Source: a virus (Duplodnaviria > Heunggongvirae > Uroviricota > Caudoviricetes). From it: a DNA stretch of 64,000 nt. Positions 21,878 through 59,948 of this stretch are shown here, one piece after another. The position numbers were made by a program, and so were the translations under genes. The notes beneath the pieces are model-generated. The model had not been told where the DNA came from and made no database searches. It worked only from the letters and a program-made list of their open reading frames with translations. The stretch lies in the IMG/VR virus record IMGVR_UViG_3300037419_002054, positions 35,122 through 99,121 of that record; one strand, 5' to 3'. How positions within the stretch are numbered: position 1 is the stretch's first letter; each line of letters starts with the position of its first letter.

Positions 21878-21960
21878 GCCGGTTCCTTTGGTAGTTGAGG
21901 CCCTATGATGCGAACCTAACTAACTGCGGCGACTTCAAACGGAGCAACGGCAAGAAACTG

Positions 21961-21989
21961 TTGACCAGTAGGGGAGGGGGATGTATATT
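21961..21989 (+). promoter_or_regulatory. sigma70-type promoter, plus-oriented copy of the repeated promoter family
   Basis: GAAACTG-TTGACC-17nt-TATATT-tctccacggttaagcgc. Drives 22032..23275. Confidence 0.6.
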
Positions 21990-22031
21990 TCTCCACGGTT
22001 AAGCGCAGGCCCTTCACCCAAGAGGAACCCC

Positions 22032-22619
22032 ATGCAGCTCCCCGACCTCTCCAGCTTCCGCGATCGGATGCACGCCGCGGCCGACAACGTCTCGCGCGCC
22101 GAGGTAGTGGAGGAGTACGAGGCGGTACTGGATGCGGACGAGACGGTGGAGCTACCGGCGGAGTGCTACGAGTTCCTCGATGAACTCTGGTTCCTCTCCG
22201 CGGCGCTGGACCCCGCGGTGCAGGAGGCCGTGCGCCTCGCGTACGCCCGGCAGGTCGCACTCGGTCACGCCCCGGTGAGTGAGCTGGACTTCCGCCGCGG
22301 ATACGTGAACCGGCGCGGGAGCCAGAACCCGCCGGACGCCGACCGCATCGGGGGCGGGACGGACGCGGAGCGCTCGGAGGCCCACGGGTATTTTGTCGCT
22401 CTCGCTGAGCAGGAGACCGACCCCATGCAGCGCGCCGCGACGGAGTGGTACGGGGCGGCGGGCTGGAGGAACGAGGACGCTCGTAGCGCCTTCATTACCG
22501 GATGGAAGAACTTCCTCGCGGGCAAGAAGCAGCCGAAGGCGGCCAATCGCCTGAGCCGCGCCCGGTTCTACGGACACGCCGCTGCCCAGCAGCACTTCAC
22601 CCAGGAGACCGAGAGATGA
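22032..22619 (+). CDS. hypothetical protein (195 aa), first gene of plus-strand island 1
   Basis: ATG at 22032 preceded by AAGAGGAA, 45 nt downstream of the plus-oriented promoter. The track ORF starts upstream inside the promoter. Confidence 0.6.
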   Translation: MQLPDLSSFRDRMHAAADNVSRAEVVEEYEAVLDADETVELPAECYEFLDELWFLSAALDPAVQEAVRLAYARQVALGHAPVSELDFRRGYVNRRGSQNPPDADRIGGGTDAERSEAHGYFVALAEQETDPMQRAATEWYGAAGWRNEDARSAFITGWKNFLAGKKQPKAANRLSRARFYGHAAAQQHFTQETER

Positions 22620-29757: not shown

Positions 29758-29834
29758 CTTCGCTCCGGAAGGGATGACCGACCCCGGCAGTGTTCCCCGC
29801 CTCCGGCAGCATGTTCGGGCTTTAACAGAAAGTG

Positions 29835-29863
29835 TTGACTACCCCGTGGAGGACGTTTATATT
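29835..29863 (+). promoter_or_regulatory. sigma70-type promoter, plus-oriented family copy
   Basis: GAAAGTG-TTGACT-17nt-TATATT-tctccacggttgagc. Drives 29906..32589. Confidence 0.6.
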
Positions 29864-29905
29864 TCTCCACGGTTGAGCAAGCTACCCCGGACCCACGGAG
29901 ATCCG

Positions 29906-31900
29906 ATGACCGCCACCGCCGCCCCCGAGACCATCACCGCGACCTACCGGCTCCCGGAGGAGAACCAGCCGGAGCTGGAGCGCCGCCTCGCCAAGATCAA
30001 CCGCGCCGCCCGCAAGATCGGGGTTGCCGAGGTCACGTACCGCGTCCTCAGCACCACGGTGGAGAAGATCCGGAAGCCCGACTGCACGGGGTTCCTGGAG
30101 GATACCGGGCGCGTCCGTCGGGTCCATACCATCGAGGTCACGGGGGAGCGGCCGCAGATCTCCGGCTGGACCTTCATCGCCGCCCTCCGGCACTTCGGCG
30201 AGGACGGGACGATCGTGGCCGGCCTCCCCGGGTACGAGATCCCGGAGCGCTACCGGAACGCCGGGAGCGACTGTGACCACTGCGGTCACCGGCGCCAGCG
30301 GAACGACACCTACCTCCTGCAGAACGAGGCGGGGGAGATCAAGCAGGTCGGCTCCACCTGCCTCGTGGACTTCCTCGGCCACCCGGACCCGCATACGGTA
30401 GCCCGCATGTGTGAGTGGCTCCGCGAGATCGAGGTAGCCTGCGGAGACGAGGAGAGCTGGGGGATGCGCGGCGGGGACAACCTCTTCGACCTGCGCTGGT
30501 ACCTCGGGTGGGTGGCGCTGGCGACCCGGTGCTACGGCTGGGTTTCCCGGAAGCGCGCCCGGGAGCTCTCGGACGAGCGCGGCTACAGCGTCTCCTCCAC
30601 TTCCCAGTCCGCGTGGTTCCTGGAGGGGCTCACCAGCCGCGGCGGCGGGATGAGCGAGAGCGAGCGCCGGAAGGAGCTGGACAAGTTCGTCCGGCAGTTC
30701 GGGTTCCAGCCGGTGCCCTCGGAGGAGGACCGGGCGCTGGCCGAGGACGCGGTGGAGTGGGCGCTCGCGCTGGAGGAGCGGGAGGCGAGCCTCAACGAGT
30801 ACGAGCACAACCTCCTGGTGGTGGCCCGGATGGGGATCACGAACTGGAAGGTGATGGGGCTTGCGGCCTCGCTCATCGCCGCGTATAAGAAGGCGATGGA
30901 CCTGATCGAGGAGCGGACGCGTACCGCCCGCCCGGTCTCCCAGCACGTCGGGACCGTCGGCAAGCGCGAGGTCTTCACCGTAACCGTCCGGAAGGTGATC
31001 CCGCTCTCCAGCGACTTCGGCCCGTCCATCGGCCTCCACATCATGGAGACCCCGGAGGGGAACCGCCTGAAGTGGTTCGCCACCTCGGCCAAGGATCTGG
31101 AGGAGGGGAAGACCTACGTGGTGAAGGCCACGGTAAAGGAGCACGGGGAGTACAAGGGGAACTTGGAGACCGTGGTCAACCGCGTGGCGGTGGTCCGCGA
31201 GGTGGAGGAGGAACCCGCCGCACCCGCGGCGGAGACGGAGACCCCGGCGCCTGTGGAGGCGCCCCAGCCCGCTACCCAGGAGACGGAAGCGACGGAGCCC
31301 ATGAAGCGTTCCAGCACGGTGGAGAGCCCGGTCAAGCGGGTCCGCGAGATCGCCGCGGAGATGTACGCCGCGAACCCGCAGGTGTCCCGGAAGGAGGTCA
31401 TCGCCCGCTGCGTCTCGGAGGGGATCTCGCCGGCCACCGCGGCCACGCAGTACGGCCACTGGAAGCGGGCGCTGCCCGCGGCGGCGGAGACGCCGGGGGA
31501 GGGGAACGCTCCGGCGGCGCCGGAGGACGTTGTGGGGAAGATCAAGCTGTCCGGACCCCAGCGCGCCGCCCTTCTCGCCGTAGCGGCCGGCCGCGGCCCC
31601 TTCCCGGGGAAGCCCCGCACCCTCGGCATCCTGAAGGAGAACGGGCTGGTGGAGTACGACGGCGTCCCGCAGGAGGGGGTCGTACGGGGGTGGTACCTGA
31701 CCGAACAGGGCGCGGAGTGGGTGCGGCGGTGGCAGGCCACCCGGCCGCCGCTGGACGAAGGCGGAGAGGAGGAGACCACCGGGCAGGAGGAGGACGGCCC
31801 GGTGGTGGAGATCGACGGGTCGGCCCTCATCCAGGTCCCCGCCGGCCGCCGCCGGAAGAAGATGCCCGAGGAGCCGCCCACGCGGCGCCGGATTGCGTGA
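29906..31900 (+). CDS. large hypothetical protein (664 aa), first gene of plus-strand island 2
   Basis: ATG at 29906 with GGAG SD, 43 nt downstream of the plus-oriented promoter. Contains CDHCGH and Ala/Pro/Glu-rich linker segments. No recognisable domain. Confidence 0.6.
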   Translation: MTATAAPETITATYRLPEENQPELERRLAKINRAARKIGVAEVTYRVLSTTVEKIRKPDCTGFLEDTGRVRRVHTIEVTGERPQISGWTFIAALRHFGEDGTIVAGLPGYEIPERYRNAGSDCDHCGHRRQRNDTYLLQNEAGEIKQVGSTCLVDFLGHPDPHTVARMCEWLREIEVACGDEESWGMRGGDNLFDLRWYLGWVALATRCYGWVSRKRARELSDERGYSVSSTSQSAWFLEGLTSRGGGMSESERRKELDKFVRQFGFQPVPSEEDRALAEDAVEWALALEEREASLNEYEHNLLVVARMGITNWKVMGLAASLIAAYKKAMDLIEERTRTARPVSQHVGTVGKREVFTVTVRKVIPLSSDFGPSIGLHIMETPEGNRLKWFATSAKDLEEGKTYVVKATVKEHGEYKGNLETVVNRVAVVREVEEEPAAPAAETETPAPVEAPQPATQETEATEPMKRSSTVESPVKRVREIAAEMYAANPQVSRKEVIARCVSEGISPATAATQYGHWKRALPAAAETPGEGNAPAAPEDVVGKIKLSGPQRAALLAVAAGRGPFPGKPRTLGILKENGLVEYDGVPQEGVVRGWYLTEQGAEWVRRWQATRPPLDEGGEEETTGQEEDGPVVEIDGSALIQVPAGRRRKKMPEEPPTRRRIA

Positions 31901-40990: not shown

Positions 40991-41013
40991 TAACCTTCCC
41001 TCCAGAAAGTGTT

Positions 41014-41042
41014 GACCACTCCCTACGTTTGTGTGATATTCC
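41014..41042 (+). promoter_or_regulatory. sigma70-type promoter, plus-oriented family copy
   Basis: GAAAGTG-TTGACC-17nt-GATATT-ccgctaaggttgagagagcgcaccc. Drives 41084..41693. Confidence 0.55.
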
Positions 41043-41083
41043 GCTAAGGTTGAGAGAGCGCACCCCTAACGGAGACTACCCCG

Positions 41084-41332
41084 ATGGCCACCATCCGCTT
41101 CTACGGCCTGACCGCAAGCCTCGCCCAGTGGCGCACCGTCGTCGCCACCCGGGTCGGCGCCGAGGGGACCGCGGTGCAGGTGGAGTCAAAGCGCCGCAAG
41201 AACCCCGCCGGCAACTTCTATCTGGACGAGCGGCACTACTTCGACGTAGAGCTCACGGACGGTCAGCGTTCGGACCTCATGACGGAGTGGCGCGCCGGCT
41301 GGAACGAGCGGATCACCTACAAGGAGGTATGA
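41084..41332 (+). CDS. hypothetical protein (82 aa), plus-strand island 3
   Basis: 44 nt downstream of the plus-oriented promoter; GGAG SD. Confidence 0.5.
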   Translation: MATIRFYGLTASLAQWRTVVATRVGAEGTAVQVESKRRKNPAGNFYLDERHYFDVELTDGQRSDLMTEWRAGWNERITYKEV

Positions 41333-45171: not shown

Positions 45172-45329
45172 CACACCACCTCCTTCCGCGGCACGCGCTT
45201 GGGGACGGCGTAGGAGACCACCGCGGTGATCTTGTCCTCGGGCACGTACGTCGAGTGATACGTGTGGCCGACGCAGCGGTACCAGACCCCCTCGGGCTCC
45301 CCGCGCGTCGTCGTGCTGTATCGTCTCTC

Positions 45330-47041: not shown

Positions 47042-47551
47042 TCAGAAGGAGGTGAAGAAGACGCGCCAGCCGGAGACCTTCTTCGCGCGCTTCCGGCGGG
47101 GGTTCGGGTTTTTGTCCCGGGCGTAGGCGGTCACGGTTCCGTGGCGGCCGCCGATGAAGACGTGGATATGGCAGTCCGCGAGGCAGTGCTCGTGCGGGGA
47201 GTCCTTCCGGCCGATGGTGACCGACATGCTGAGGTCCCCGCGGGGCAGACGCTCCACGTAAGCGTTCTTCACGAAGTAGCGGTCCGCGTACTCGTCCCCG
47301 TAGCGCGAGCGGGCGAAGTTGGCGAGAACCCACTCCTGCGCCTTGATCTGGCTGGGAGTCACCTCCTCCGCGCGACGCTTGGGCTCCCGGCGCGGGATCT
47401 TGTGCCCGCAGTTCCGGCACTCCCACACGGGAACGAGGCCGGTACGGTCCTCGTTAAGGTCCAGCTCGCGGCCCAGGATCGCTCCGCCGTCCGGGCAGCA
47501 GCGGGGGCAGGCGGCGATCTTGTAGTCCTTGCGGTAGCCGAGGTCAGCCAT
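47042..47551 (-). CDS. hypothetical protein with zinc ribbon (169 aa)
   Basis: ATG 47549-47551, 40 nt downstream of the cassette promoter at 47598-47626. Sequence MADLGYRKDYKIAACPRCC... Confidence 0.5.
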   Translation of the reverse strand: MADLGYRKDYKIAACPRCCPDGGAILGRELDLNEDRTGLVPVWECRNCGHKIPRREPKRRAEEVTPSQIKAQEWVLANFARSRYGDEYADRYFVKNAYVERLPRGDLSMSVTIGRKDSPHEHCLADCHIHVFIGGRHGTVTAYARDKNPNPRRKRAKKVSGWRVFFTSF

Positions 47552-47597
47552 TGGAGTCTCCGGGGGGTGCGGCGTGCGCTCTCTGAACCTTGGGAGA

Positions 47598-47626
47598 ATA
47601 ATACACGAATCCCCTCCCGGCGTCAA
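47598..47626 (-). promoter_or_regulatory. cassette promoter (minus) embedded in a hairpin; terminator-promoter module 47575-47650
   Basis: Minus strand TTGACG-17-TATTAT. Arms GAATCCCCTCC/GGAGGGGATTC (47607-47646) flank the -35. Leader CTCCCAAGGTTCAGAGAGCGCAC. Confidence 0.65.
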
Positions 47627-47668
47627 CAACTTCCGAGAGGGGATTCTTTCACTGCCCGTCGGGCGGAC

Positions 47669-47995: not shown

Positions 47996-48023
47996 CTTCC
48001 GATCTCCTGTAGATGAAGGGGGC

Positions 48024-48052
48024 GGGTGCGGCCGGCTTCTCCAGCCGCACCC
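48024..48052 (-). terminator. terminator-like hairpin
   Basis: GGGTGCGGC-11nt-GCCGCACCC. Confidence 0.4.
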
Positions 48053-48061
48053 CGGGTGGTC

Positions 48062-48418
48062 CTACTCCTCTTCGGACTGACCGCGGACCCACCCACAGTG
48101 CGGGCAGGGCTCGCCGTGCTCCACGTACTCGTAGGGGTAGGAACCGCCGCACTTCTCGCAGATGGTTTCGTCCTCCTCCGGCACGTCCGAGGTCTCCACC
48201 AGCCCCAGGCTCGCCGCCACCTCGAACCCGCGCGCCGTGGGCTTGTACTGCTCCTCCGTCTCCTCGGCGAGGCCCAGCTCGATCAGCCGGCGGAACGTCC
48301 TCGGGGCTCCGAGCGCGTGCGCCACCGTCTTCTCCACTCCGCCCTCGAACCCGCAGAGGTCGCGAAGGACCCGCTCCTGCGTCTCGGTGAGCTCCGGGAT
48401 ACCGCTCGTCTCGGTCAT
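48062..48418 (-). CDS. zinc-ribbon protein (118 aa)
   Basis: CEKCGGSYPYEYVEHGEPCPHCGW. Downstream of the cassette promoter at 48467-48495. Confidence 0.5.
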   Translation of the reverse strand: MTETSGIPELTETQERVLRDLCGFEGGVEKTVAHALGAPRTFRRLIELGLAEETEEQYKPTARGFEVAASLGLVETSDVPEEDETICEKCGGSYPYEYVEHGEPCPHCGWVRGQSEEE

Positions 48419-48466
48419 CCTGCCTCCTCATGAAAGGGGTTGGACTGCGTCCGACCTACGTGGAGA

Positions 48467-48495
48467 ATAATACACGAATCCCCTCCCGGAGTCAA
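48467..48495 (-). promoter_or_regulatory. cassette promoter (minus) with hairpin over -35
   Basis: TTGACT-17-TATTAT; arms 48477-48487 / 48505-48513. Confidence 0.6.
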
Positions 48496-48526
48496 CAACT
48501 TCCGAGAGGGGATTTCATCGATGCGG

Positions 48527-48712
48527 TCACTTCGTAGGTCCGCCCTTGTACTTGCCGAGGTTCTCCTGATGTTGACGTCCCCGCTCGTGCGATCCGCGGG
48601 CAAGGGCGTTGGTGCTGATCCGAACGTAGCAGATCCGGCACGTTTGGTGCCGCGGGCCGTTTGGGGTGTAGAGCGGCCGAGGGAGCCCCGGCCGGCGGTC
48701 TTCCTCGCCCAT
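48527..48712 (-). CDS. small basic protein (61 aa)
   Basis: AGGAGG SD; CRICYVRIS. Confidence 0.4.
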   Translation of the reverse strand: MGEEDRRPGLPRPLYTPNGPRHQTCRICYVRISTNALARGSHERGRQHQENLGKYKGGPTK

Positions 48713-48715
48713 AGG

Positions 48716-48907
48716 TCAGTCCTCCTGCAGCCACCACTCCGGGACGAGCGCCATGGTGAGCCCGAAGGCCACCTCCTTCTTCCCGTCCTTGTCCCCGATC
48801 AGCATCCCGCGGGAGCCGTTCGGGATGCGGTCGATGACGACGTCGGCGTCGTCGAGGACCGTGAGCTGGCCCCAGGGGCTGTTGAGCTTCACGTAGCGGG
48901 CCGCCAT
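48716..48907 (-). CDS. hypothetical protein (63 aa)
   Basis: ORF. Confidence 0.4.
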   Translation of the reverse strand: MAARYVKLNSPWGQLTVLDDADVVIDRIPNGSRGMLIGDKDGKKEVAFGLTMALVPEWWLQED

Positions 48908-48908
48908 C

Positions 48909-49049
48909 TCAGCCTCCGGTGAGAACGTACGTGAGGAACCAGACGCCCATCACGAGCCCCGCGAAGCGGTAGCTGCCGGTCTTGCCGAGCACGGCCACCG
49001 CGGCGTAGATCGCGAAGAGCAGGGGGAGCCAGAAGCGGAGCGCGTTCAT
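48909..49049 (-). CDS. small membrane protein (46 aa)
   Basis: MNALRFWLPLLFAIYAAVAVLGKTGSYRFAGLVMGVWFLTYVLTGG. GGAGGT SD. Confidence 0.35.
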   Translation of the reverse strand: MNALRFWLPLLFAIYAAVAVLGKTGSYRFAGLVMGVWFLTYVLTGG

Positions 49050-49561
49050 TCTACCTCCGGAGCCGAGGGTAAGGACTGTCGCAGCCCGGCGTTGAGCCGG
49101 AGCAGCACGTAGTGGAAGAGCGTAACCGAGAACAGGGCGAAGAGGTTCGCCTCGTCCTCCTGCCGCTGGAACGCCCGCACCTCGTCCGGCGCAAGGCGCG
49201 CGGGATTGAGCGCGTATGCGGAGTTCGGGGTGTGCGGGAGCAGGTGATGCCCGAGCTCGTGGAGGATCGCGTGGGCCTGCTCTACGAGGTCCAGGTCCGT
49301 GTCCAGCCAGATCACGGACAGCGTGGCCGTCTTGATGAGGCAGGCCGGTAGACTCGGCGCGGGCCGCCGCCGGATCTCCAGCCCGTGGGCCGAGGCGGCC
49401 AGCTCCGCCCAAAGGAGGAGGGCGGAGTCCACGGAGACGCAGCGGGCCATGTCCGGGATGCCGTTCCAGACCACCACGCTGGCGGTGTCAACGGCACGGA
49501 GGAGGATCGCGCCCGTGCGATCCTCCTCTACCGGGAGGCTACTCCTCGTCATCGTCTTCAA
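49046..49561 (-). CDS. ImmA/IrrE-family (COG2856) HExxH zinc metallopeptidase domain protein (171 aa)
   Basis: Motif AHAILHELGHHLLPH is the diagnostic HExxH block of the ImmA/IrrE family. Confidence 0.55.
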   Translation of the reverse strand: MKTMTRSSLPVEEDRTGAILLRAVDTASVVVWNGIPDMARCVSVDSALLLWAELAASAHGLEIRRRPAPSLPACLIKTATLSVIWLDTDLDLVEQAHAILHELGHHLLPHTPNSAYALNPARLAPDEVRAFQRQEDEANLFALFSVTLFHYVLLRLNAGLRQSLPSAPEVE

Positions 49562-49682
49562 CGGAGTCGATGTTGAGCACTCCGTCCCGGACGTACGCCT
49601 CAGCCTCCGGGTAGCCGTCCACGATCACCTCCATCTCGTCCGGGAGGCCGGCGAGGGCCTCCCGCAGCTGACGCACGTTCAT
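49539..49682 (-). CDS. small acidic protein (47 aa)
   Basis: Not in the ORF track. Verified translation MNVRQLREALAGLPDEMEVIVDGYPEAEAYVRDGVLNIDSVEDDDEE. Confidence 0.35.
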   Translation of the reverse strand: MNVRQLREALAGLPDEMEVIVDGYPEAEAYVRDGVLNIDSVEDDDEE

Positions 49683-49694
49683 AGTTCGCCCCTT

Positions 49695-49844
49695 TCAGGC
49701 GTAGTAGGTGTCGCGTGGATCCAGCCCGGGCTCCGGCCGGTATTCGGGGATGGCGACGACCTCGCCGCGAAGGATCTCGGGGCACTGCTCGCAGGAGCCG
49801 GCCGCGTCCAGCCGCAGGGAGCAGAGGGGGCAATGCGTCGGCAT
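49695..49844 (-). CDS. zinc-ribbon microprotein (49 aa)
   Basis: MPTHCPLCSLRLDAAGSCEQCPE... GGGAGG SD. Confidence 0.4.
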   Translation of the reverse strand: MPTHCPLCSLRLDAAGSCEQCPEILRGEVVAIPEYRPEPGLDPRDTYYA

Positions 49845-49848
49845 CTCT

Positions 49849-50088
49849 TTACGCCTCCCTCTCGACGCCCAGCGTCTCCAGGGTCGGGAGCCCGCAGTCC
49901 GGGTGCTCCGCGAGGTACTGCTCATACGCGTCCGTGGGGCAGTAGCCCCAGCCGAGGTTGCCGGCCGTGGCGTTCCACGCCTGCAGGTTCAACGCATTCA
50001 CCTCGTCCTGGGTGGTGAGCGCGCGTGCCTCGTAGAGGTTGCCGCCGTCTCCGTCCGAGAGGACGTACAGCTTGGGCTTCTGTTCCAT
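49849..50088 (-). CDS. hypothetical protein (79 aa)
   Basis: ATG 50086-50088, downstream of the cassette promoter at 50135-50163. Confidence 0.45.
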   Translation of the reverse strand: MEQKPKLYVLSDGDGGNLYEARALTTQDEVNALNLQAWNATAGNLGWGYCPTDAYEQYLAEHPDCGLPTLETLGVEREA

Positions 50089-50134
50089 CGGGATCTCCCG
50101 CGGTAGGGGGTAAAGGGCCACTCAACCTGTGAGG

Positions 50135-50163
50135 ATAATACACGGAGCCTCCTCCGGAGTCAA
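50135..50163 (-). promoter_or_regulatory. cassette promoter (minus) with covarying hairpin
   Basis: TTGACT-17-TATTAT. Arms GAGCCTCCTCCGG / CCGGAGGAGGC (50145-50181) have different sequence but the same structure. Confidence 0.6.
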
Positions 50164-50195
50164 CATCTTCCGGAGGAGGCCGGGCCTTATGGATC

Positions 50196-50687
50196 TCAGC
50201 TGACGTAGGGCTTCAGCTCCGGGTGCTGCCGGAGGCAGTCCGGGCCAATCGGAAGACCGCCGACGTATCCGGCGTCATTCACGTCCGCGCTTCCCGGAAC
50301 CGCGGCGTAGGCGCCACCGTCCACCACCTCCAGGTAGTGGCGGGGGTTCTTCACCTCCCGGCCGCAGACCACGCAGGGGTCCTTCTCGCAGGGCTCCCGG
50401 TAGGGCTTTGTCGACTCCGGGATGCGCACGCGGGGCTCGGGGATGAGGAGAGCCGCCGGGACGGCGCAGGTGAACTTCTTGAACCGGACCAGCGCCAGCT
50501 GCACGCCGTCCCCGCAGATGGCGCGGAGCCCGGCCGCGCGCTCCTGCTCAGACGGCGTGGAGTCCCGGAGGCCGAGAACGACGCCGGCCGTTCCCACCAC
50601 GGGCGCGTCCTGGATCTCGCGCGCCTGCAGGTCCGCGTACGCCGCGGGGGTCATGAAGATCTTGGCGCCCTTGGTAATCTCCGTCAT
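50196..50687 (-). CDS. hypothetical protein (163 aa)
   Basis: Downstream of the cassette promoter at 50732-50760. Confidence 0.5.
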   Translation of the reverse strand: MTEITKGAKIFMTPAAYADLQAREIQDAPVVGTAGVVLGLRDSTPSEQERAAGLRAICGDGVQLALVRFKKFTCAVPAALLIPEPRVRIPESTKPYREPCEKDPCVVCGREVKNPRHYLEVVDGGAYAAVPGSADVNDAGYVGGLPIGPDCLRQHPELKPYVS

Positions 50688-50731
50688 CTCTCCGCTCTCC
50701 GTTTGGGGGTGGACCGCTCAACCATGGGAGA

Positions 50732-50760
50732 ATAATACACGAATCCTCTCCGATGGTCAA
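50732..50760 (-). promoter_or_regulatory. cassette promoter (minus) with covarying hairpin
   Basis: TTGACC-17-TATTAT. Arms GAATCCTCTCCG / CGGAGAGGATTTC (50741-50782). Confidence 0.6.
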
Positions 50761-50803
50761 CACTTTCTGCGGAGAGGATTTCGTTGACGGGTGACGGAGC
50801 AGG

Positions 50804-51370
50804 TCAGGCCGGGTAGACTAGCACCACGCCGTCGCTCCAGTTCTCGAGGTGGAAGCCTTCCGGGGTGGCCCACGGGTGAACGAGCCAGGGCGTGCCGTCG
50901 TCCCAGCAGTAGTCGATCTGCGTGCCGAAGGGGAGGAAGGTGAGGCCGCCTACATCGATGCCGATACCCCACAGCGCGCGGCGGCCGGCGCGCTCGTTCA
51001 CCTCCGGGGTCAGCACCTTCACGTTCTCCGGACCCGCGCCCACGGTCCCGAGGATCACCCGCGCGGCCTCGGCCAGCTTCTCCGCCACGCGCTCCGCGGT
51101 CTCCGGCTCCTTCGCCATCTGCCGGGCGTGCTCCCGGAGGGCGGAGATGATCCAGTCCCGGGAGACGTCGGTGCCGTCCGGGTTCTCGATGAGGGGGACC
51201 TTCCGGAGGGCTTCCGGGTTAGCGGTCCCGTAGTGCCACGCGATCCAGCCCTTCGGGAGCCCGTGCTTGGTGAGCCCGGCGAACTCCTCGTCGGTCATCC
51301 CGCCGTTGGCGAAGCGGCCGACCGTCCCGTTGATCCGGCGGCCCAGGTGGTGCGCGATGAGTCCCTGCAT
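50804..51370 (-). CDS. hypothetical protein (188 aa)
   Basis: ORF. Confidence 0.5.
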   Translation of the reverse strand: MQGLIAHHLGRRINGTVGRFANGGMTDEEFAGLTKHGLPKGWIAWHYGTANPEALRKVPLIENPDGTDVSRDWIISALREHARQMAKEPETAERVAEKLAEAARVILGTVGAGPENVKVLTPEVNERAGRRALWGIGIDVGGLTFLPFGTQIDYCWDDGTPWLVHPWATPEGFHLENWSDGVVLVYPA

Positions 51371-51401
51371 CGTTCGGTCTCCAGTTCGGGGGTTTTAGAT
51401 C

Positions 51402-51653
51402 TCAGCGGCCGGCGGCGGTCCCGCGACGGTCCTCGGCGTCCGCGAGGATCTCCACGAGTTCCTTCATCCACTCCTCGAGGGTGAGGTCCGCGAGGAGGTA
51501 GACGTTCACGCTGGTGGTGAAGGCGCCTTCTACGGCGGCGCCGGTGAAGTAGAAGTACCCGGAGCCCTTCACCAGCTGGGCGTCGATTCCGGCGGCGCGG
51601 ATCACCTTGTTGACGTCGGCCACGGCGCGGGGATAGCGCTGCATGTTAGGCAT
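51402..51653 (-). CDS. hypothetical protein (83 aa)
   Basis: ATG 51651-51653, 41 nt downstream of the cassette promoter at 51695-51723. Confidence 0.45.
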   Translation of the reverse strand: MPNMQRYPRAVADVNKVIRAAGIDAQLVKGSGYFYFTGAAVEGAFTTSVNVYLLADLTLEEWMKELVEILADAEDRRGTAAGR

Positions 51654-51694
51654 CGGGGTCTCTCCGTTTGGGTGCGCTCTCTCAACCTTGGGAG

Positions 51695-51723
51695 AATAAT
51701 ACACGAATCCCCTCCCGGCGTCA
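51695..51723 (-). promoter_or_regulatory. cassette promoter (minus) with hairpin
   Basis: TTGACG-17-TATTAT. Arms 51704-51714 / 51734-51743. Conserved leader CTCCCAAGGTTGAGAGAGCGCACCC. Confidence 0.65.
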
Positions 51724-51862
51724 ACACTTTCCGAGAGGGGATTTCACTGACCGCTATCGCTTCCGTTCCGGCGGCCCCCACGTGAACCCGATGAACCACC
51801 GCCAGAGGACGAAGCCGACCCCCGGCCGGCCCTCCACGTCGTGTATCCCGAACCGGGGCATT

Positions 51863-52114
51863 CTACGCCTCCTGCGGAAGGTCGATGATGACGGCCACGC
51901 GGCGGGGGTCGTCCGCCGCCTCGCCGAGCTTCTTCATCAGCTCCGCGAGGATCGCCTTCACCGCGGCGCTGGCGTCGTCCAGCGCGACCGTGGACAGCTC
52001 GCCCTCGTCGGCCATATCCTCCAGGTTCTCCTCCAGATCGCGCTCGAAGTCCCGATCCCCGAGGGCGGTGGCGATCACGTTCAGCGCGGCGCGCGTAGCA
52101 GCAGAGGTTGGCAT
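51863..52114 (-). CDS. hypothetical acidic protein (83 aa)
   Basis: ORF. Confidence 0.45.
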   Translation of the reverse strand: MPTSAATRAALNVIATALGDRDFERDLEENLEDMADEGELSTVALDDASAAVKAILAELMKKLGEAADDPRRVAVIIDLPQEA

Positions 52115-52118
52115 CGGT

Positions 52119-52298
52119 TCAGCTCTCCAGTAGGGCGTCGACCTTGGGGTTGTGGCTGATGATCCCGAGGATCTTCCAGCCCTCTCCGTATAGCGTCGTG
52201 AAGTCCACGTCGTATTCGAAGCCGGCGTCCTCCAGCTCCTGGGACACGCGGATCACGTCGTCTTCCTCGAGGTGGTATTCGGCGCGGTGCTGCGGCAT
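52119..52298 (-). CDS. hypothetical small protein (59 aa)
   Basis: Not in the ORF track. Verified translation MPQHRAEYHLEEDDVIRVSQELEDAGFEYDVDFTTLYGEGWKILGIISHNPKVDALLES. Downstream of the cassette promoter at 52349-52378. Confidence 0.4.
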   Translation of the reverse strand: MPQHRAEYHLEEDDVIRVSQELEDAGFEYDVDFTTLYGEGWKILGIISHNPKVDALLES

Positions 52299-52348
52299 GA
52301 CGGGGGCTCCCGTTGGGGTAGTGGGTGCGCTCTCTCAACCTGTGGAGA

Positions 52349-52378
52349 AAGATACACGCACCCACCTCCCGTGGTCAA
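52349..52378 (-). promoter_or_regulatory. cassette promoter (minus), degenerate copy
   Basis: TTGACC-18-TATCTT; leader CTCCACAGGTTGAGAGAGCGCACCC. Only a weak 7-bp inverted repeat. Confidence 0.45.
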
Positions 52379-52620
52379 CAGTTTCCGTTCTCTCCCTCCT
52401 CCGGGAGGATGGGTTCGCGGCACCGCTTGCAGGTGGAGTCGTACTGCTCCGGGTAGGTCTCCAGTAGGTAGTCCAGCTCACCGGAGTCCAGCGGGTACGC
52501 CTGGGTACGCTCGGTGCGATCCTTCTTCGCCTCCCCCTCCCGAATGCTCTCGCCGCAGGAGGGGCAGAGGATCATGCTCGCGTCCCCGATCCCGTAGATG
52601 TAGGCGACGGTCTTGCTCAC
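52375..52620 (-). CDS. zinc-ribbon protein (about 81 aa)
   Basis: GTG start in a GTGA overlap. CPSCGES...CKRCREP. Confidence 0.4.
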   Translation of the reverse strand: MSKTVAYIYGIGDASMILCPSCGESIREGEAKKDRTERTQAYPLDSGELDYLLETYPEQYDSTCKRCREPILPEEGENGNC

Positions 52621-53036
52621 GCGTCCACCCCCTGGAAGAGGAGGCCCAGGGCCGTAAGGCGTCGCACGTCGTCCGCGGTGATACCGCTCTCGGCCGGGAG
52701 CGTACGGAGCCGGCCGACGAGCTCCGCGAGGTACTCGGCCGTGGTCCCCGGCTCCTCCTCCGGGGCCTGATCCCCGCGCGGGCGCTCGCACGAGTTGCAA
52801 ACGTCATCGGGATAGAGCCGCACGCAGAGGTTGCGGTAGCCGCAGGCGCTGCACTCCCACTCCGCGCCCCCTCCCGCGGGGCGCTGCCGGATATCGACCA
52901 CGTGGGCCGCGTCCGCCCCGATCTCGTCCCGGACCCACCCGAGGACCCGGGCGATGGCGTGGTAGGGGTCGTTCGCGGACTCCTGACGGGCGAACGGGAC
53001 GATAGCGATCCCCGATACTACGCGTTCGAGCGACAA
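52617..53036 (-). CDS. hypothetical protein with CSACGY..CNSCERP zinc-ribbon (139 aa, TTG start)
   Basis: Downstream of the cassette promoter at 53083-53111. Confidence 0.45.
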   Translation of the reverse strand: MSLERVVSGIAIVPFARQESANDPYHAIARVLGWVRDEIGADAAHVVDIRQRPAGGGAEWECSACGYRNLCVRLYPDDVCNSCERPRGDQAPEEEPGTTAEYLAELVGRLRTLPAESGITADDVRRLTALGLLFQGVDA

Positions 53037-53082
53037 GGTGCACCTCCTGCGGGTAAGGGGTAGGACTGCTCAACCTGTGAGG

Positions 53083-53111
53083 ATAATACACGGCACCCAA
53101 CCCCGCGTCAA
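53083..53111 (-). promoter_or_regulatory. cassette promoter (minus) preceded by a separate terminator hairpin
   Basis: TTGACG-17-TATTAT. Upstream (minus) GGGGAGGGGCC...GGCTCCTCCCC hairpin at 53117-53143, then UUUCUG. Confidence 0.6.
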
Positions 53112-53171
53112 CAGAAAGGGGAGGAGCCTCTCGGCCCCTCCCCCTCCCTTCGGTTCAGCCTCGCTCCGCGC

Positions 53172-53864
53172 TCAGCGGTGCGTGGTATCCCTCGAGGCCG
53201 CCACGGTGCCGTCGGCCGGCGCGCCGAAGTCGATGGCCTCCTCCTTCCCCGTCTCGAAGGAGTGCAGCGTTCGGTCGTCGAGCACCTGCGTACGGATCAT
53301 CTGCAGCGCGGCCTCGCCGGTGACGAACCCGTCGCCCTTGCGCACCCGGAGGACGTTGCTGGGGAAGTACATCTTCACGAAGAACGGGCGGATCACGCCG
53401 TCGTTCGTCCACGCGTCGTACACGGCCACCCGCTGCGCCAGCTCGTCCTGCTTGTTCTTGAACTCGGTACGGCCGGCGCTGATCGCGTCGAAGAGCCGGT
53501 CCTGGGCCTTGGCGAGCTGCGACAGGTCCGGGTACGCCTCGCGCATCGCGGAGATCAGCTGGCCGTTGCTCTGGAAGCCGCCGGTGCCGTACCGCCCCTG
53601 CACCGCGTCGCGCAACACGGTGTCGAGCTGGGCGCTCTGGACCCGGACGATGCCGGCCTGCTCCTTCACCGTCTTCACGTAGGTCGAGAGCGCGTTCTGG
53701 TTGGCCGTGTACTGCGCCGCCAGCTGCGTCTCCTGCCGGATTCCCTCCCGCTTGACGCTTCCGACGTAGCCGAAGGCGCCCACCAGGAGGACGACGACCG
53801 CCGCGAGGGCGATCCCGCCGATCGCGAGGCAGCCGAGGCCCGCGGCCTTGCCCGTGTTGCTCAT
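53172..53864 (-). CDS. LemA-family-like membrane protein (about 230 aa)
   Basis: ATG 53862-53864 (MSNTGKAAGLGCLAIGGIALAAVVVLLVGAF): single N-terminal TM followed by a Gln/Ala-rich soluble domain, typical of LemA. Confidence 0.45.
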   Translation of the reverse strand: MSNTGKAAGLGCLAIGGIALAAVVVLLVGAFGYVGSVKREGIRQETQLAAQYTANQNALSTYVKTVKEQAGIVRVQSAQLDTVLRDAVQGRYGTGGFQSNGQLISAMREAYPDLSQLAKAQDRLFDAISAGRTEFKNKQDELAQRVAVYDAWTNDGVIRPFFVKMYFPSNVLRVRKGDGFVTGEAALQMIRTQVLDDRTLHSFETGKEEAIDFGAPADGTVAASRDTTHR

Positions 53865-53895
53865 TCTGTTGATCCCCGAGGGATGGAGGGTTTGC

Positions 53896-55323
53896 CTACC
53901 GCAGCCCGCGGTAGGGACGGAACGCCGGGACGGAGGAGTACCGCCGCCGGTTGGGCTCACCGAAGAACGCCGCGCCGCCCCAGGCGACGAGCGAGCCCGC
54001 GAGAGCAATGAGGAAGATCCAGACCTTCGCCTTCGTGGACGGCTGGATCTCTCCCTTCAGGTACAGGTAGCCCCCGCCGTGGGAGTCTCCGTTCATACTG
54101 ACCCGGGCGAACCGCGTGGCGGGGTTCTCGAGGCCGAAGACGACGGACTCGATCACGCCGTTCCCGTGGAGGGAGGTCACGGCCTGCCCGCGGATCTGTC
54201 CGCGTACGGAACCCACCACGGCCTCCGGGGTGAGCGGAGTACCCGCAAGCCGGCGGTTGAGCACCGTCGTCATCAACTCGTTGCCGGAGGGCATCCCGGT
54301 CACGGCTCGGCCCCACGCGGCGGTCTTCCCGTCCAGCGTACCCACGGCCACGATGATGGTGTTCTTCGCCGCCGTGTTCCGGTCGAACGCGGTCACGTCC
54401 TGCCAGCGGGCCTTCAGTGCCATGATGTAGGCGTCCGCGTTCGGGACCTTCTTCGCGTCCACGAGGACGAGGAGGAGATCCCCGCGGAGCTCGTTGCCGA
54501 GTGCTGCGTTCAGCTTGCCCACCGCGTCCTGCCACGCCCGCGCGTTGGGCGGCACGAACCCGGCGAACACCACCTTGTCCGAGAGGTAGTGCGAGTAGAT
54601 GTTGCTCGGGACCGCGGGCAGCAGCTGCCGGGAGAGGAACGAGTTCACGTCCGAACTGCGCTCCTGTAGGATCGTGCCGTCCGAGGCGAGGATGTAGTTC
54701 TTGTAAGTCGCTCGCTTCACGACGGGTCCGGGGTTCCCGGAGAGGACCCGCTCGCGCGCCTGGGACCAGAACGCGGGGTAGCCCGTACCGGCGTTCGAGA
54801 TCACGCTGGAGGGGAGATCCTCGCCGCGCTCCGGCTCCCACCTCTCGCTGTGCGGGTTGGCCGGGAAGCGGCCGGAGTCGATCAGGTACTCGCCCAGGGT
54901 CGTCTGCACGTAGTACGCCCACTCGGTCCGGACGTACGGGCAGTGATGGTACTCGGTCGTGTAGTACGTCGTGCACGAGCGGGTCTTCCCGCTCCCCGAG
55001 CAGGAGGTGTGCGAAACGAGGTACGGATCGCAGTTGTAGCAGTGCTGACAGCTGCCGTCCCGGGTGCAGTTCGTCGGCACCGCCCGGACGCCGGACTCCC
55101 ACCCGTTGTGGAACTCGTTGAACGTCAGCTTGGCGTCCACCGCCGTCTTCCAGCCCAGGCCCACGCTCAACGGGACGATGAGGAGGGAGATGGCAAGGCC
55201 GTAGCCGAGCAGCTCCGCGCGGGAGATCTGCAGGCCGTGCTCGGGGTGCGTGTCGAGGTACCACTTGAGCGCGGCGCCGGCCCCGAAGGCGGCGACGAGG
55301 GACCAGAATCCGATGACCCACAT
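53896..55323 (-). CDS. large membrane protein (about 475 aa) with N- and C-terminal TM helices and a Cys-rich ectodomain segment; possible TPM-like partner of LemA
   Basis: ATG 55321-55323 (MWVIGFWSLVAAFGAGAAL). Cys cluster NCTRDGSCQHCYNCDPY...CSGSGKTRSCTTYYTTEYHHCPY. C-terminal TM VWIFLIALAGSLVAWGGAAFFG. Confidence 0.45.
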   Translation of the reverse strand: MWVIGFWSLVAAFGAGAALKWYLDTHPEHGLQISRAELLGYGLAISLLIVPLSVGLGWKTAVDAKLTFNEFHNGWESGVRAVPTNCTRDGSCQHCYNCDPYLVSHTSCSGSGKTRSCTTYYTTEYHHCPYVRTEWAYYVQTTLGEYLIDSGRFPANPHSERWEPERGEDLPSSVISNAGTGYPAFWSQARERVLSGNPGPVVKRATYKNYILASDGTILQERSSDVNSFLSRQLLPAVPSNIYSHYLSDKVVFAGFVPPNARAWQDAVGKLNAALGNELRGDLLLVLVDAKKVPNADAYIMALKARWQDVTAFDRNTAAKNTIIVAVGTLDGKTAAWGRAVTGMPSGNELMTTVLNRRLAGTPLTPEAVVGSVRGQIRGQAVTSLHGNGVIESVVFGLENPATRFARVSMNGDSHGGGYLYLKGEIQPSTKAKVWIFLIALAGSLVAWGGAAFFGEPNRRRYSSVPAFRPYRGLR

Positions 55324-55384
55324 AAGGCTGTGTCCGGGGGAAAGGGATGGAGGGAACCGGCGGCTAAGTGCTCCGCCGGTCCCG

Positions 55385-55795: not shown

Positions 55796-55796
55796 C

Positions 55797-55961
55797 TCAG
55801 TAGTCCTGACGCTCGCGGACCTTCCGGTCCTCCTCAAGCCGGTGCTCGACGGCGTCGTTGAACGCGTCCTCGAGGGCCACGCGTTGCTCGACCGTGAGGC
55901 CGCCGACGGCGTCCGCCAGCAGCTTCACGAACTTCTCGGTGGGGGTCAGTTCCACCAGCAT
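55797..55961 (-). CDS. hypothetical small protein (54 aa)
   Basis: Not in the ORF track. Verified translation MLVELTPTEKFVKLLADAVGGLTVEQRVALEDAFNDAVEHRLEEDRKVRERQDY. Downstream of the cassette promoter at 56006-56034. Confidence 0.4.
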   Translation of the reverse strand: MLVELTPTEKFVKLLADAVGGLTVEQRVALEDAFNDAVEHRLEEDRKVRERQDY

Positions 55962-56005
55962 CTTGTCCTCCCGGGTGCGGGGGTGCGCTCTCTCAACCGT
56001 GGAGA

Positions 56006-56034
56006 ATAGTACACGAATCCCCCGGACTGGTCAA
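56006..56034 (-). promoter_or_regulatory. cassette promoter (minus) with covarying hairpin
   Basis: TTGACC-17-TACTAT. Arms GAATCCCCCGG / CGGGGGATTC (56016-56055). Leader CTCCACGGTTGAGAGAGCGCACCC. Confidence 0.6.
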
Positions 56035-56075
56035 CACTTTCAGCTCGGGGGATTCGTCGTAGGGGTCGGTAGCGT

Positions 56076-56900: not shown

Positions 56901-56901
56901 C

Positions 56902-57987: not shown

Positions 57988-58070
57988 CGGTGGCCTCCTG
58001 CGAGGGGGTCGGTCGGTGCTGAACCTCTGGACCCCCTCACCGTCGGCCGAGTCGTTCTCGGTGTTCGGCG

Positions 58071-58545: not shown

Positions 58546-58830
58546 TCATGCCTCCGGGGCGAGGGAGGTGGGCGCCGACTTGACCCGCGTCCCCATCCGC
58601 ACCCGCACGATGTTCACCCCGTGCCCCTCCTTCGCGCGGTACGCCTTCCAGTCCGGGCGGTCGTTGATCCACCCGCGGGCGCCGGCGATGGTCCCCCAGG
58701 TCTTCGCGTCCTCCACATAGGTGGACAGCTCCCCCTCCATGTGCATCCCGACCTGACGGGAGACGTAGCGCGGGGCGTTCGGGACCTGCGGGAAGACGAC
58801 CTGGATGGCGTAGCGGAAGGTCTCGGTCAT
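58546..58830 (-). CDS. hypothetical protein (94 aa)
   Basis: Downstream of the cassette promoter at 58875-58903. Its 3'UTR contains a G14 tract and a terminator. Confidence 0.5.
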   Translation of the reverse strand: MTETFRYAIQVVFPQVPNAPRYVSRQVGMHMEGELSTYVEDAKTWGTIAGARGWINDRPDWKAYRAKEGHGVNIVRVRMGTRVKSAPTSLAPEA

Positions 58831-58874
58831 CGTTGGATTCTCCGTTGGGGGTGCGCTCTCTCAACCTGGGGAGA

Positions 58875-58903
58875 ATAATACACGCATCCCCTCCATTGGT
58901 CAA
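58875..58903 (-). promoter_or_regulatory. cassette promoter (minus) with covarying hairpin
   Basis: TTGACC-17-TATTAT. Perfect 11-bp arms GCATCCCCTCC / GGAGGGGATGC (58884-58926). Confidence 0.65.
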
Positions 58904-58947
58904 CACTTTCTGACGGAGGGGATGCGCTATCCGACCGGGCAGGGAGC

Positions 58948-59324: not shown

Positions 59325-59834
59325 TCAGGCCGCGAACATCTTCTTGTAGGCCGCGGCCGAGATGAACTTGCGGTCCACGTAGATCCGCGCGGGGAACTGG
59401 TGGAAGAGCGTCCCCTGCCCGGAGACGTTCAGGATCATCTGCTGCTCGATCTCCACGTTGCGGCCGGCGCGGGTGCCCGTGATCCGGAAGCTCACCCCGT
59501 CCATCCGGTGCACGGTGCCGGTCTCCAGCTCGCCGATCTTCTCCTCGATCTTGCCCACCCACGCCTCCACCACCTGCTGCGCGTACTCCTCCGAGACCCG
59601 CGTGAGCTTCGCCTCGTTCAGGCTCTTGGTCTGGTCGGTGGAGGAGGCCGAGACGAGGAACTGGCTGACGGTGTTCCGCAGGGGCTTGGCGAACCGGAAG
59701 CTGTTGTAGATGCCCTTCAGCTCGGGGCCGTGCGCGGCGACCATATCGGCGAAGAGACCGCGGACGATCGCGACGTAGCGGGCGGCGATCTGCGGCTTGT
59801 ACTCGTTCATCGCGGCGGCGAGGGAGGCGTGCAT
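59325..59834 (-). CDS. hypothetical protein (169 aa)
   Basis: ATG 59832-59834, downstream of the cassette promoter at 59880-59908. Confidence 0.45.
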   Translation of the reverse strand: MHASLAAAMNEYKPQIAARYVAIVRGLFADMVAAHGPELKGIYNSFRFAKPLRNTVSQFLVSASSTDQTKSLNEAKLTRVSEEYAQQVVEAWVGKIEEKIGELETGTVHRMDGVSFRITGTRAGRNVEIEQQMILNVSGQGTLFHQFPARIYVDRKFISAAAYKKMFAA

Positions 59835-59879
59835 CTTCGGTTCTCCGTGGGCTTGGGTGTGTCCGCTCAACCTGTATCT

Positions 59880-59908
59880 AATATACAACGATCCCCCGCC
59901 GTGGTCAA
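59880..59908 (-). promoter_or_regulatory. cassette promoter (minus) with covarying hairpin
   Basis: TTGACC-17-TATATT. Arms GATCCCCCGCCG / CGACGGGGGATC (59891-59928). Confidence 0.6.
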
Positions 59909-59948
59909 CACCTTTCGACGGGGGATCTTTTTGATCGGTCCAGCGGGG

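Follow-up and report, generated by a model that had tools for sequence, protein, structure and literature searches.

PeSLs of T4-like phages are repeated intergenic elements of ~100 bp in which a sigma70-consensus early promoter is joined to a stable stem-loop terminator (PMC2839356, PMC4122927). The stem-loop is mostly found between the -35 and -10 boxes or overlaps the -10 box, the 3' end of the element supplies the Shine-Dalgarno sequence and the start codon, and the mosaic copies preferentially flank small ORFans (PMC2839356, PMC4122927). Recombination and the formation of mini-circles between PeSLs were demonstrated experimentally in T4-like phages (PMC2839356). Initial transcribed sequences provide a second point of reference. 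At the escape-limited promoter T5 N25 and at T7 A1, a purine-rich non-template initial transcribed sequence makes for easy escape, and conversion to a pyrimidine-rich sequence was reported to lower productive synthesis by a factor of about 10 (PMC12464699). Promoter output can change by as much as three orders of magnitude with the first ~10 transcribed bases, and a T-G step at about +5 to +7 results in an initial-transcription pause and slower escape on E. coli promoters (PMC5961368). Conserved elements at gene starts are also found in Cluster K mycobacteriophages, whose 13-bp SAS includes the Shine-Dalgarno sequence, is located 3-7 bp from the start codon and is promoter-independent (PMC3203893).

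These systems were compared with a repeated leader sequence found downstream of putative early promoters in a tailed phage of 67% GC. The whole stretch of DNA that was analyzed, 64 kb in length, is referred to as the window.

The phage and its promoter cassettes

The window encodes the following phage proteins.

0.3-22 kb, minus strand: portal, MuF-like protein, prohead protease, HK97-type capsid and tape-measure protein
23.9-25.5 kb: large terminase
61.4-63.8 kb: class II ribonucleotide reductase

A fragmented DNA polymerase at 42-46.5 kb was considered and is not claimed, as a single sub-threshold Pfam match was obtained. The nearest named homologues of the reductase (62-64%) come from Gemmatimonadota and Longimicrobiales, and the host is, judging from these homologues, probably a member of the Gemmatimonadota. 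We know of essentially no experimental promoter data for this phylum. Megablast against 50,697 GenBank phage records returned no relatives at the DNA level, and no related loci were found via the phage proteins. The closest capsid homologue in a set of 5.8 billion proteins shares 57% identity, and homologues of a 513-aa protein of the window are located in bacterial chromosomes.

The initial annotation had counted 13 promoter modules, a number that was confirmed by a scan for TTGAC-N16-19-TANNNT. A profile built from these modules and rerun on the window with all filters off recovered the same 13 at 42-68 bits, with no other match exceeding 8 bits. In a simple sigma70 scan, the region from 44 to 64 kb yielded 12 sites versus 1.4 expected, the rest of the window contained essentially no sigma70-like sites beyond the cassette family, and every high scorer was a family member, which supports the promoters as real and as a single class. 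The modules follow the layout GAAAGTG-TTGAC-N18-TATTAT-TCTCC-N2-3-GGTTGAG-N5-11-YACCC-N2-12-(AC)GGAG-N6-9-ATG, with the 5' hairpin arm ahead of GAAAGTG and the 3' hairpin arm and CGTG within the -35/-10 spacer. Alignment on the -35 box and on GGTTGAG for information content revealed that conservation is unbroken from -42 to about +9 (GAAAGTGTTGAC ... TATTAT TCTCC ... GGTTGAG) and then drops. As this conservation is continuous, the leader extends the promoter and is not a separate island. The leader flagged in the initial annotation is the downstream third of a composite regulatory cassette of ~100 bp that is present in 13 copies in the window. Six of these cassettes form a subclass, class A, which is set by the extension AGAGCGCACCC after GGTTGAG; in the list below, "block" denotes the 18 nt from GGTTGAG to the end of this extension, and all hairpins are predicted.

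51651..51748, minus strand: focal cassette, class A, profile 67.7 bits; hairpin GAAATCCCCTCTCGG / CCGGGAGGGGATTC encloses the -35 box TTGAC (51724-51720); -10 box TATTAT (51701-51696), then discriminator TCTCCCAA; block GGTTGAGAGAGCGCACCC (51687-51670), then AAAC-GGAGAG-ACCCCG-ATG, start codon 51653
51402-51653, minus strand: gene behind the focal cassette, an 83-aa ORFan
41004..41086, plus strand: class-A cassette without upstream hairpin; -35 box 41012-41016, -10 box TGATAT 41034-41039, block 41048-41065, ATG at 41084
47549..47650, minus strand: class-A cassette; hairpin encloses the -35 box (47626); block GGTTCAGAGAGCGCACGC at 47589-47572 with 2 mismatches
52296..52420, minus strand: class-A cassette; small separate hairpin 5' of the -35 box (52378), 19-nt gap, -10 box TATCTT, block 52340-52323
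55959..56058, minus strand: class-A cassette; hairpin around the -35 box (56034), z = -5.5; -10 box TACTAT, 7-nt discriminator, block 55998-55981
58828..58927, minus strand: class-A cassette; hairpin around the -35 box (58903), z = -6.6; -10 box TATTAT, block 58866-58849
50685..50784, minus strand: cassette with another extension, GGTTGAGCGGTCCACCCC; hairpin encloses the -35 box (50760)
59832..59932, minus strand: cassette with extension GGTTGAGCGGACACACCC; discriminator AGATACA replaces TCTCC; hairpin encloses the -35 box (59908)
50086..50187, minus strand: cassette with leader CCTCACA-GGTTGAGTGGCCC...; hairpin encloses the -35 box (50163)
53034..53150, minus strand: cassette with leader CCTCACA-GGTTGAGCAGTCC... 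and start codon TTG; canonical terminator hairpin with T-run just 5' of the -35 box (53111)
48416..48519, minus strand: mosaic cassette 48495, with leader CGTAGGTCGGACGCAGTCC unrelated in sequence to the others
29827..29908, plus strand: cassette TATATT-TCTCCAC-GGTTGAGCAAGC... without hairpin, drives a 664-aa protein
21953..22034, plus strand: cassette TATATT-TCTCCAC-GGTTAAGCGCAGG... without hairpin, divergent from the portal/structural operon

GGTTGAG starts 7-8 nt after the -10 box in 12 of the 13 copies (8 nt in six, 7 nt in six), and this slack of 1 nt matches a flexible choice of start site and not a rigid protein site. Transcription usually starts 6-8 nt 3' of the -10 box; judged from this distance, the transcript would begin with A(N)GGUUGAG, and the class-A block would cover about +3 to +20. 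A variable spacer followed by a GGAG-type Shine-Dalgarno sequence, as described in the initial annotation, was found in all 13 copies, 6-10 nt before ATG or TTG. The distance from the -10 box to the start codon is 42-50 nt, for most copies measured from TGTATT, 2 nt upstream of TATTAT, and the 5' leaders are 35-43 nt long. The class-A block ends 16-25 nt before the start codon, so that the Shine-Dalgarno site lies outside the block. Class-A promoters differ in their -10 hexamers (TGATAT, TATTAT, TATCTT, TACTAT) and are interleaved with the other promoters without positional logic.

Hairpins around the -35 box are predicted for eight of the ten co-directional (minus-strand) copies, with energies of -20 to -32 kcal/mol and z-scores of -2.9 to -6.6 versus dinucleotide shuffles. 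Their G+C-rich stems of 10-14 bp pair sequence 5' of GAAAGTGTTGAC with the -35/-10 spacer; the -35 box is thus part of the loop, and the 3' arm is followed by the U-rich -10 region. The arm sequences vary between copies and pairing is retained. A separate hairpin 5' of the -35 box is present in the other two co-directional copies, and none is predicted for the three plus-strand copies, which are preceded by divergent genes, with no transcription from upstream that would need to be stopped. This distribution, with hairpins at co-directional copies and none at divergent copies, is as predicted for terminators and suggests terminator activity. The stem-loop of the cassette would then terminate transcription arriving from upstream, and in most copies its loop would carry the -35 box, with the 3' arm filling the -35/-10 spacer.

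Most of the genes behind the cassettes are small. Ten of the 13 encode proteins of 54-169 aa that match no functionally characterized family; the other three products are a protein of 195 aa without a match, one of 83 aa that matches only a PHROG of unknown function, and the protein of 664 aa. CxxC zinc-ribbon motifs are contained in many early ORFans. The genes at 58454-56076 lie behind a strong predicted terminator (58515-58486) and have no promoter of their own.

Conservation and mosaicism of the leader block

The leader of about 25 nt that had been noticed at six promoters is real. A scan of the 64-kb window located the 25-mer CTCCCAAGGTTGAGAGAGCGCACCC exactly at 51670-51694 (minus strand) and detected five copies with up to three mismatches, compared with 0.00 expected from 100 shuffles. 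The 18-nt core GGTTGAGAGAGCGCACCC is common to six promoters (chance expectation 0); the sixth copy, at 55983-55998 (minus strand), was recovered with the 16-nt core GGTTGAGAGAGCGCAC and has a discriminator that is shorter by 1 nt. The complete blocks lie at 41048-41065 on the plus strand and at 47572-47589, 51670-51687, 52323-52340, 55981-55998 and 58849-58866 on the minus strand. A plus-oriented copy was thus correctly recognized in the initial annotation, with its coordinates, 41041-41065 and not 41043-41067, having slipped by 2 nt. The block is perfect in five of the six class-A copies and contains two mismatches in the remaining one (47572-47589). GGTTGAG itself is exact in ten of the 13 promoters and present as a one-base variant in two more, and in leaders outside class A it is followed by CGG(T/A)C..., CAGTCC..., TGGCCC... 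and other sequences.

Comparison of the six class-A copies allowed us to separate the block from its surroundings. Averaged over all pairs of copies, identity reaches 0.95 in GGTTGAG and 0.97 in the 11-nt extension. It is lower in the -10 hexamer (0.73), in the -35/-10 spacer (0.62) and in the 2 nt directly upstream of the block (0.57), and over the 18 nt 3' of the block it is at background (0.29). Conservation no higher than in the flanking sequence would have spoken against the idea of the initial annotation; with 95-97% identity for the block versus 29-73% for its surroundings, this is not the case. In class-A copies, the leader block is the best-conserved part of the cassette, ahead of the -10 box. 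Only the last 18 nt of the 25-mer are sharply conserved, and its first 5-7 nt (CTCCCAA) probably represent the discriminator and start-site region and would be largely untranscribed. Because a discrete block is better kept than the -10 box, constraint is favoured over simple recent duplication. The heptamer GGTTGAG occurs 16 times in the window, ten times in promoters and six times elsewhere, the latter being close to the chance expectation of about 7. Pattern scans and the profile search detected no copies of the block away from promoters in the window.

The alternative idea that the leader marks recombination boundaries also gained real support. Each cassette was divided into an upstream half (hairpin, -35 box and spacer) and a downstream half (-10 box, discriminator and leader), and pairwise similarities of the two halves showed no correlation (Spearman rho 0.09, p = 0.44). 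The upstream half of copy 48495 has 93-95% identity to those of copies 47626 and 51724, and its downstream half has 46-49%. The upstream half of 47626 is 89-93% identical to those of 51724 and 48495. For copies 41012 and 52378, identity to 58903 amounts to 84-86% in the downstream half and 50-55% in the upstream half. This lack of correlation indicates that the cassettes are mosaic, as described for PeSLs of T4-like phages (PMC2839356), and is consistent with an exchange of halves. Recognition element and recombination boundaries are compatible ideas.

Exchange could also account for the block without any function, if the block was a hitch-hiker carried along by duplication or gene conversion between the promoter homology and the microhomology of the ACGGAGA Shine-Dalgarno sequence. 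The independent similarity patterns of the half-cassettes (rho 0.09), the 56-nt tracts with 93-95% identity that are common to 47626, 48495 and 51724, and the recurrence of ACGGAGA directly 3' of the block in several copies are in line with such a process, as are the recombination and mini-circles shown by experiment for PeSLs of T4-like phages (PMC2839356). However, this would require the conversion tracts of five independent copies to end at an identical pair of nucleotides, with the 2 nt upstream only 57% identical and the downstream flank at background. The purine-then-pyrimidine pattern described below is furthermore retained in a leader of divergent sequence, indicating selection. A functionless block is therefore considered rather unlikely and is one of the weaker readings.

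Possible functions of the leader

Leaders were folded from the putative start to +18 of the coding sequence and folded no better than shuffled sequences (mean z = +0.6), which bears out the earlier remark that the leader forms no obvious hairpin. Their base composition is more distinctive. All 13 leaders are purine-rich at +1..+13 (9.2 of 13 purines versus 6.7 for the sense-strand background) and pyrimidine-rich at +14..+26 (4.3 of 13 purines). The purine excess was unmatched in 20,000 resamplings, a significance that is overstated since the copies are related. Copy 48495, whose leader is unrelated in sequence, also has a purine-rich start followed by a C-rich stretch; composition is thus retained even where sequence is not, which indicates selection on the region. 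Pyrimidine-rich tracts before the Shine-Dalgarno sequence also occur at internal promoterless genes (R 0.08-0.54), so that the C-rich half resembles what generally surrounds a ribosome-binding site. Specific to the promoters is the purine-rich half of the leader, GGTTGAG...

This division bears on the question of whether the leader acts purely at the RNA level, as an enhancer of translation or stability, as a ribosome standby site or by pairing with rRNA or a small RNA. The leaders are unstructured and the Shine-Dalgarno sequence is moderately accessible in predicted folds, the 5' UTRs are of uniform length (35-43 nt), and the SAS/ESAS of Cluster K provide a precedent for conserved elements at gene starts (PMC3203893). 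Yet the pyrimidine-rich tract is not specific to these leaders, the promoter-specific GGTTGAG... part is the one furthest from the ribosome-binding site, the block never precedes a promoterless gene, and no sequence complementary to the leader was found elsewhere in the window. An exclusively RNA-level role is, like hitch-hiking, a weaker reading and appears very improbable.

Two candidate pairings were also discarded. Complementarity to the GCUCAACC region of 16S rRNA is treated as coincidence, as part of the match would lie upstream of the transcription start and this rRNA segment is helical. TCTCC might pair as an anti-Shine-Dalgarno sequence with GGAGA when transcripts read through, but the copies with CCTCA or AGATA discriminators show no covariation.

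The reading that we prefer, to which we give about even chances, is that of a PeSL-like promoter-terminator-leader cassette in which the block is the initial transcribed region, shaped by selection on initiation, escape and an open ribosome-binding site and spread by recombination. The near-consensus, host sigma70-type promoter GAAAGTG-TTGAC-N18-TATTAT would bind polymerase very tightly, and the leader would act chiefly at the level of DNA and polymerase, as discriminator and initial transcribed sequence. The C-rich discriminator TCTCC followed by the purine-rich start A(N)GGUUGAG(AGAG) may help polymerase escape, and the C-rich unstructured stretch together with the GGAG Shine-Dalgarno sequence may keep the ribosome-binding site open. 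Cassettes flanking small genes without assigned function would swap halves by homologous recombination, by which the leader would be spread and homogenized. The six-copy GGTTGAGAGAGCGCACCC would then be the dominant leader allele, kept by promoter-proximal selection and gene conversion.

Several observations are difficult to reconcile with escape as the whole explanation. A generic constraint on escape or composition needs no identity at 18 of 18 positions, and the better conservation of the class-A block than of the -10 hexamer points to sequence-specific recognition. Seven promoters lack the AGAGCGCACCC extension, so promoter activity as such does not require it. If the start is placed correctly, a T-G step of GGTTGAG falls at about +5/+6 or +6/+7, which would fit regulation better; the heptamer could then act as a checkpoint instead of just accelerating escape. 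The near-perfect identity over 18 nt, above that of the -10 box, is not fully explained by the escape model and sustains the reading as a site for a regulator.

According to this second reading, the 18-nt block is a sequence-specific site for a phage or host factor that marks an early sub-regulon of six genes. At the DNA level, the block could be an operator over +3..+20 whose bound factor shuts the promoters at the early-to-middle switch; at the RNA 5' end, it could be the loading point of a factor that acts, for instance, in processive antitermination or in the control of stability. Identity of 95-97% over exactly 18 nt with sharp edges, next to differing -10 boxes, spacers and hairpins, speaks for such a site, as do the constant orientation and distance of the block from the promoter and its single-stranded state in predicted RNA folds. 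Some control of read-through may exist, given the promoterless genes 58454-56076 behind a terminator, and early ORFans with CxxC zinc ribbons could bind nucleic acid.

The initial annotation had suggested a protein- or RNA-recognition element. Its sequence conservation stands, and the attributes by which known elements of this kind are recognized were not found: there is no structure, no dyad or direct-repeat symmetry across copies, no Rfam match and no orphan copy, and no binding domain was detected. In the phage proteins scanned, most of whose ORFs are without annotation, no DNA- or RNA-binding domain was found, helix-turn-helix, repressor and antiterminator domains included. A comparison of the whole window with Rfam gave no match at gathering thresholds, and the stretch of 47-60 kb had no relevant match at E < 1. 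Cluster A mycobacteriophage stoperators (L5 gp71 sites) are scattered in and between genes, mostly off promoters, and have a known repressor. The block differs from repressor operators and stoperators in that its TCTC/GAGA arms have only 4 bp, vary in spacing by 1 nt and are missing in class-B copies, and in that off-promoter copies, as expected for stoperator-type sites, are absent. Antitermination RNAs of the nut or put type (boxA with a boxB hairpin, or a two-stem put) do not correspond to the leader either, as neither a boxB- nor a put-like stem-loop and no structure beyond that of shuffles is present. The interleaving of class-A with other promoters, which follows no positional logic, also argues against a sub-regulon. 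We thus regard the regulator site as possible yet doubtful. Its more specific form, in which GGTTGAGAGAGCGCACCC is recognized by a small phage protein, perhaps a zinc-ribbon ORFan, for shut-off of a six-gene subset of the early cassettes or resistance of their transcripts to termination, is unlikely. If true, the control site would be linear, unstructured and close to the promoter, in contrast to nut, put, qut and palindromic operators.

Further resemblances were examined and rejected. The boxA-like string CGCTCTCTCAAC is found on the antisense strand only. A sigma-dependent pause element of the lambda PR' type (TANNNT) is not contained in GGTTGAGAGAGCGCACCC, which has no TA step. The likeness of TTGAGCGGA to the lac operator sequence TTGTGAGCGGATAA is lost across copies, and no LacI-type protein is present. 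A second promoter with TTGAGA as -35 box has no -10 box following it, save by chance in copy 58903. The plus-strand sequence AATAATACACGAATCC resembles a T7-like promoter in the wrong orientation, and there is no phage RNA polymerase gene.

Relatives and comparison with known systems

IMG/VR, JGI metagenomes and GTDB genomes were searched for the leader pattern and for the promoter without the leader, which yielded nothing or chance matches only; the latter lay in AT-rich or unrelated DNA with no TTGAC at the right distance. Public fragments of the same phage, from JGI sample 3300037313 (Ga0395908) and a single SRA run, match parts of the window at 100% identity. As no motif-carrying relative was found, the function of the leader remains inferred. 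GGTTGAG is not a general feature after phage consensus promoters: an IMG/VR scan for TTGAC-N18-TATWWT-N7-8-GGTTGAG returned at least 119 loci versus 84 for the reversed-heptamer control, which is no meaningful enrichment.

The control scan also uncovered an unrelated AT-rich phage (IMGVR_UViG_3300033146_001127, _001182) with at least ten consensus promoters, each of which is followed by the phage's own near-identical leader of ~30 nt, TTGTGAGTTGGTGATAACCCTTTC..GGAG..ATG. Conserved leaders behind repeated early promoters thus recur among phages. This makes the present cassettes less novel and supports their reality, and the second, independent example suggests that the layout is a general phage solution.

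The window offers 13 internally controlled examples of a strong promoter, putative terminator and 5' UTR in an uncultured high-GC phage. The cassette of ~100 bp is a compact, insulated expression unit that could potentially be reused in synthetic biology for high-GC hosts, and a block that is better kept than the -10 box provides a cheap and concrete target for work on sequence-specific selection of initial transcribed sequences.

With the SAS/ESAS of Cluster K, the block has in common that short asymmetric motifs occur in one orientation before many non-structural genes of varied families and are absent from other genomes. It is not a member of that family, as it is tied to a promoter, excludes the Shine-Dalgarno sequence and lies 16-25 nt from the start codon. 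Stoperators are likewise asymmetric, orientation-specific repeated sites linked to transcription, whereas in the window all copies are tied to promoters and no candidate repressor was seen among the proteins scanned.

The resemblance to T5 N25 and T7 A1 consists of a near-consensus promoter and a purine-rich non-template strand over +1..+13-20. The initial sequence of T5 N25, ATAAATTTGAGAGAGGAG, has the 9-mer TTGAGAGAG in common with the class-A block at a similar position, and the T7 A1 transcript starts with ATCGAGAGGG. The effect on escape was demonstrated with E. coli polymerase only, as all of the mechanistic literature concerns E. coli, and the window, unlike these two promoters, repeats the same sequence at six promoters of one genome, with a pause-prone T-G step near +6.

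The cassettes of the window fit four of the five defining features of PeSLs, the stem-loop being a predicted hairpin with putative terminator activity, and the mosaic halves suggest the fifth, recombination between copies. In contrast to the T4-like phages, the phage of the window belongs to an unrelated, high-GC lineage with an HK97-type capsid and a tape-measure protein. Its cassettes lack an AT-rich UP element, their own hairpin loop carries the -35 box, and their leader block is better kept than the -10 box, a feature that is not emphasized in descriptions of PeSLs. The idea of a mobile promoter-terminator cassette that shuffles ORFans would thereby be extended beyond T4-like myoviruses. 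Repeated promoter-terminator cassettes are already known from other phages, and the cassettes of the window extend them to an unrelated lineage.

Hairpins and promoters in the cassettes

The overlap of termination and initiation signals was analyzed in the repeated cassettes, most of which combine a terminator-like hairpin with a sigma70-type promoter, a conserved leader and a Shine-Dalgarno site. Eight of these hairpins share one arrangement.

47598-59932, minus strand: eight terminator-like hairpins, each with the -35 hexamer in the loop of the stem

The -10 element lies within the U-rich tail, and the arms vary in sequence among the copies while their complementarity is kept. With the -35 hexamer in the loop and the -10 element in the tail, a single 60-nt stretch doubles as promoter and predicted terminator. 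Another assembly of this phage, built independently from short reads, breaks off at positions 51713 and 47599, each exactly within a promoter repeat. The length and mutual similarity of the cassettes are sufficient to break up an assembly.

Transcription without sigma70-like promoters

Canonical terminators were found at four sites.

58515-58486, minus strand: 12-bp terminator with T-run
15664-15634, minus strand: terminator
26943-26913, minus strand: terminator
27891-27866, minus strand: terminator

The first is directly preceded on its 5' side by 14 consecutive G residues in the sense orientation, which read as C14 at 58525-58538 of the plus strand. Downstream of it, the sigma70-like scan of the window detected no promoter for the four minus-strand genes at 58454-56076, and their expression must therefore rely on read-through or another promoter class. 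The same scan yielded zero sigma70-like promoters for the minus-strand structural and middle-region operons (window 1-41000), where the other three terminators are located, so that late transcription must use a different signal.

Gene content around the cassettes

53172-55437, minus strand: adjacent genes for 513-aa and 278-aa proteins
61412-63787, minus strand: class II ribonucleotide reductase with TSCPD domain
60757-61305, minus strand: Terminase_2 small-subunit-like gene, among early genes
23940-25472, minus strand: large terminase gene
42300-46500, minus strand: overlapping short ORFs, each at most 200 aa

A pair homologous to the 513-aa and 278-aa genes was identified in a contig of a bacterial MAG (L034, 10001-12104), the larger protein being 45% identical between the two. 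As the MAG pair adjoins an rve-family integrase, a mobile two-gene module is suggested. The nearest relatives of the reductase are enzymes of Gemmatimonadota and Longimicrobiales (62-64%), an affinity that hints at the host phylum. The two terminase genes are separated by approximately 35 kb. The only match in the short-ORF stretch was a sub-threshold DNA_pol_A hit (44397-44747), and these ORFs may be either real small genes or one gene broken by frameshifts.

Repeated leaders in an unrelated phage

An IMG/VR control scan with the consensus promoter and the reversed GGTTGAG heptamer led by chance to an unrelated phage of 30% GC.

IMGVR_UViG_3300033146_001127: loci L161, L172 and L178
IMGVR_UViG_3300033146_001182: loci L158 and L206

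These records contain at least ten sigma70-consensus promoters, and behind every one of them stands nearly the same leader, TTGTGAGTTGGTGATAACCCTTTC-T4-GGAG-N7-ATG. Both phages thus share the same design, a conserved leader behind repeated early promoters.
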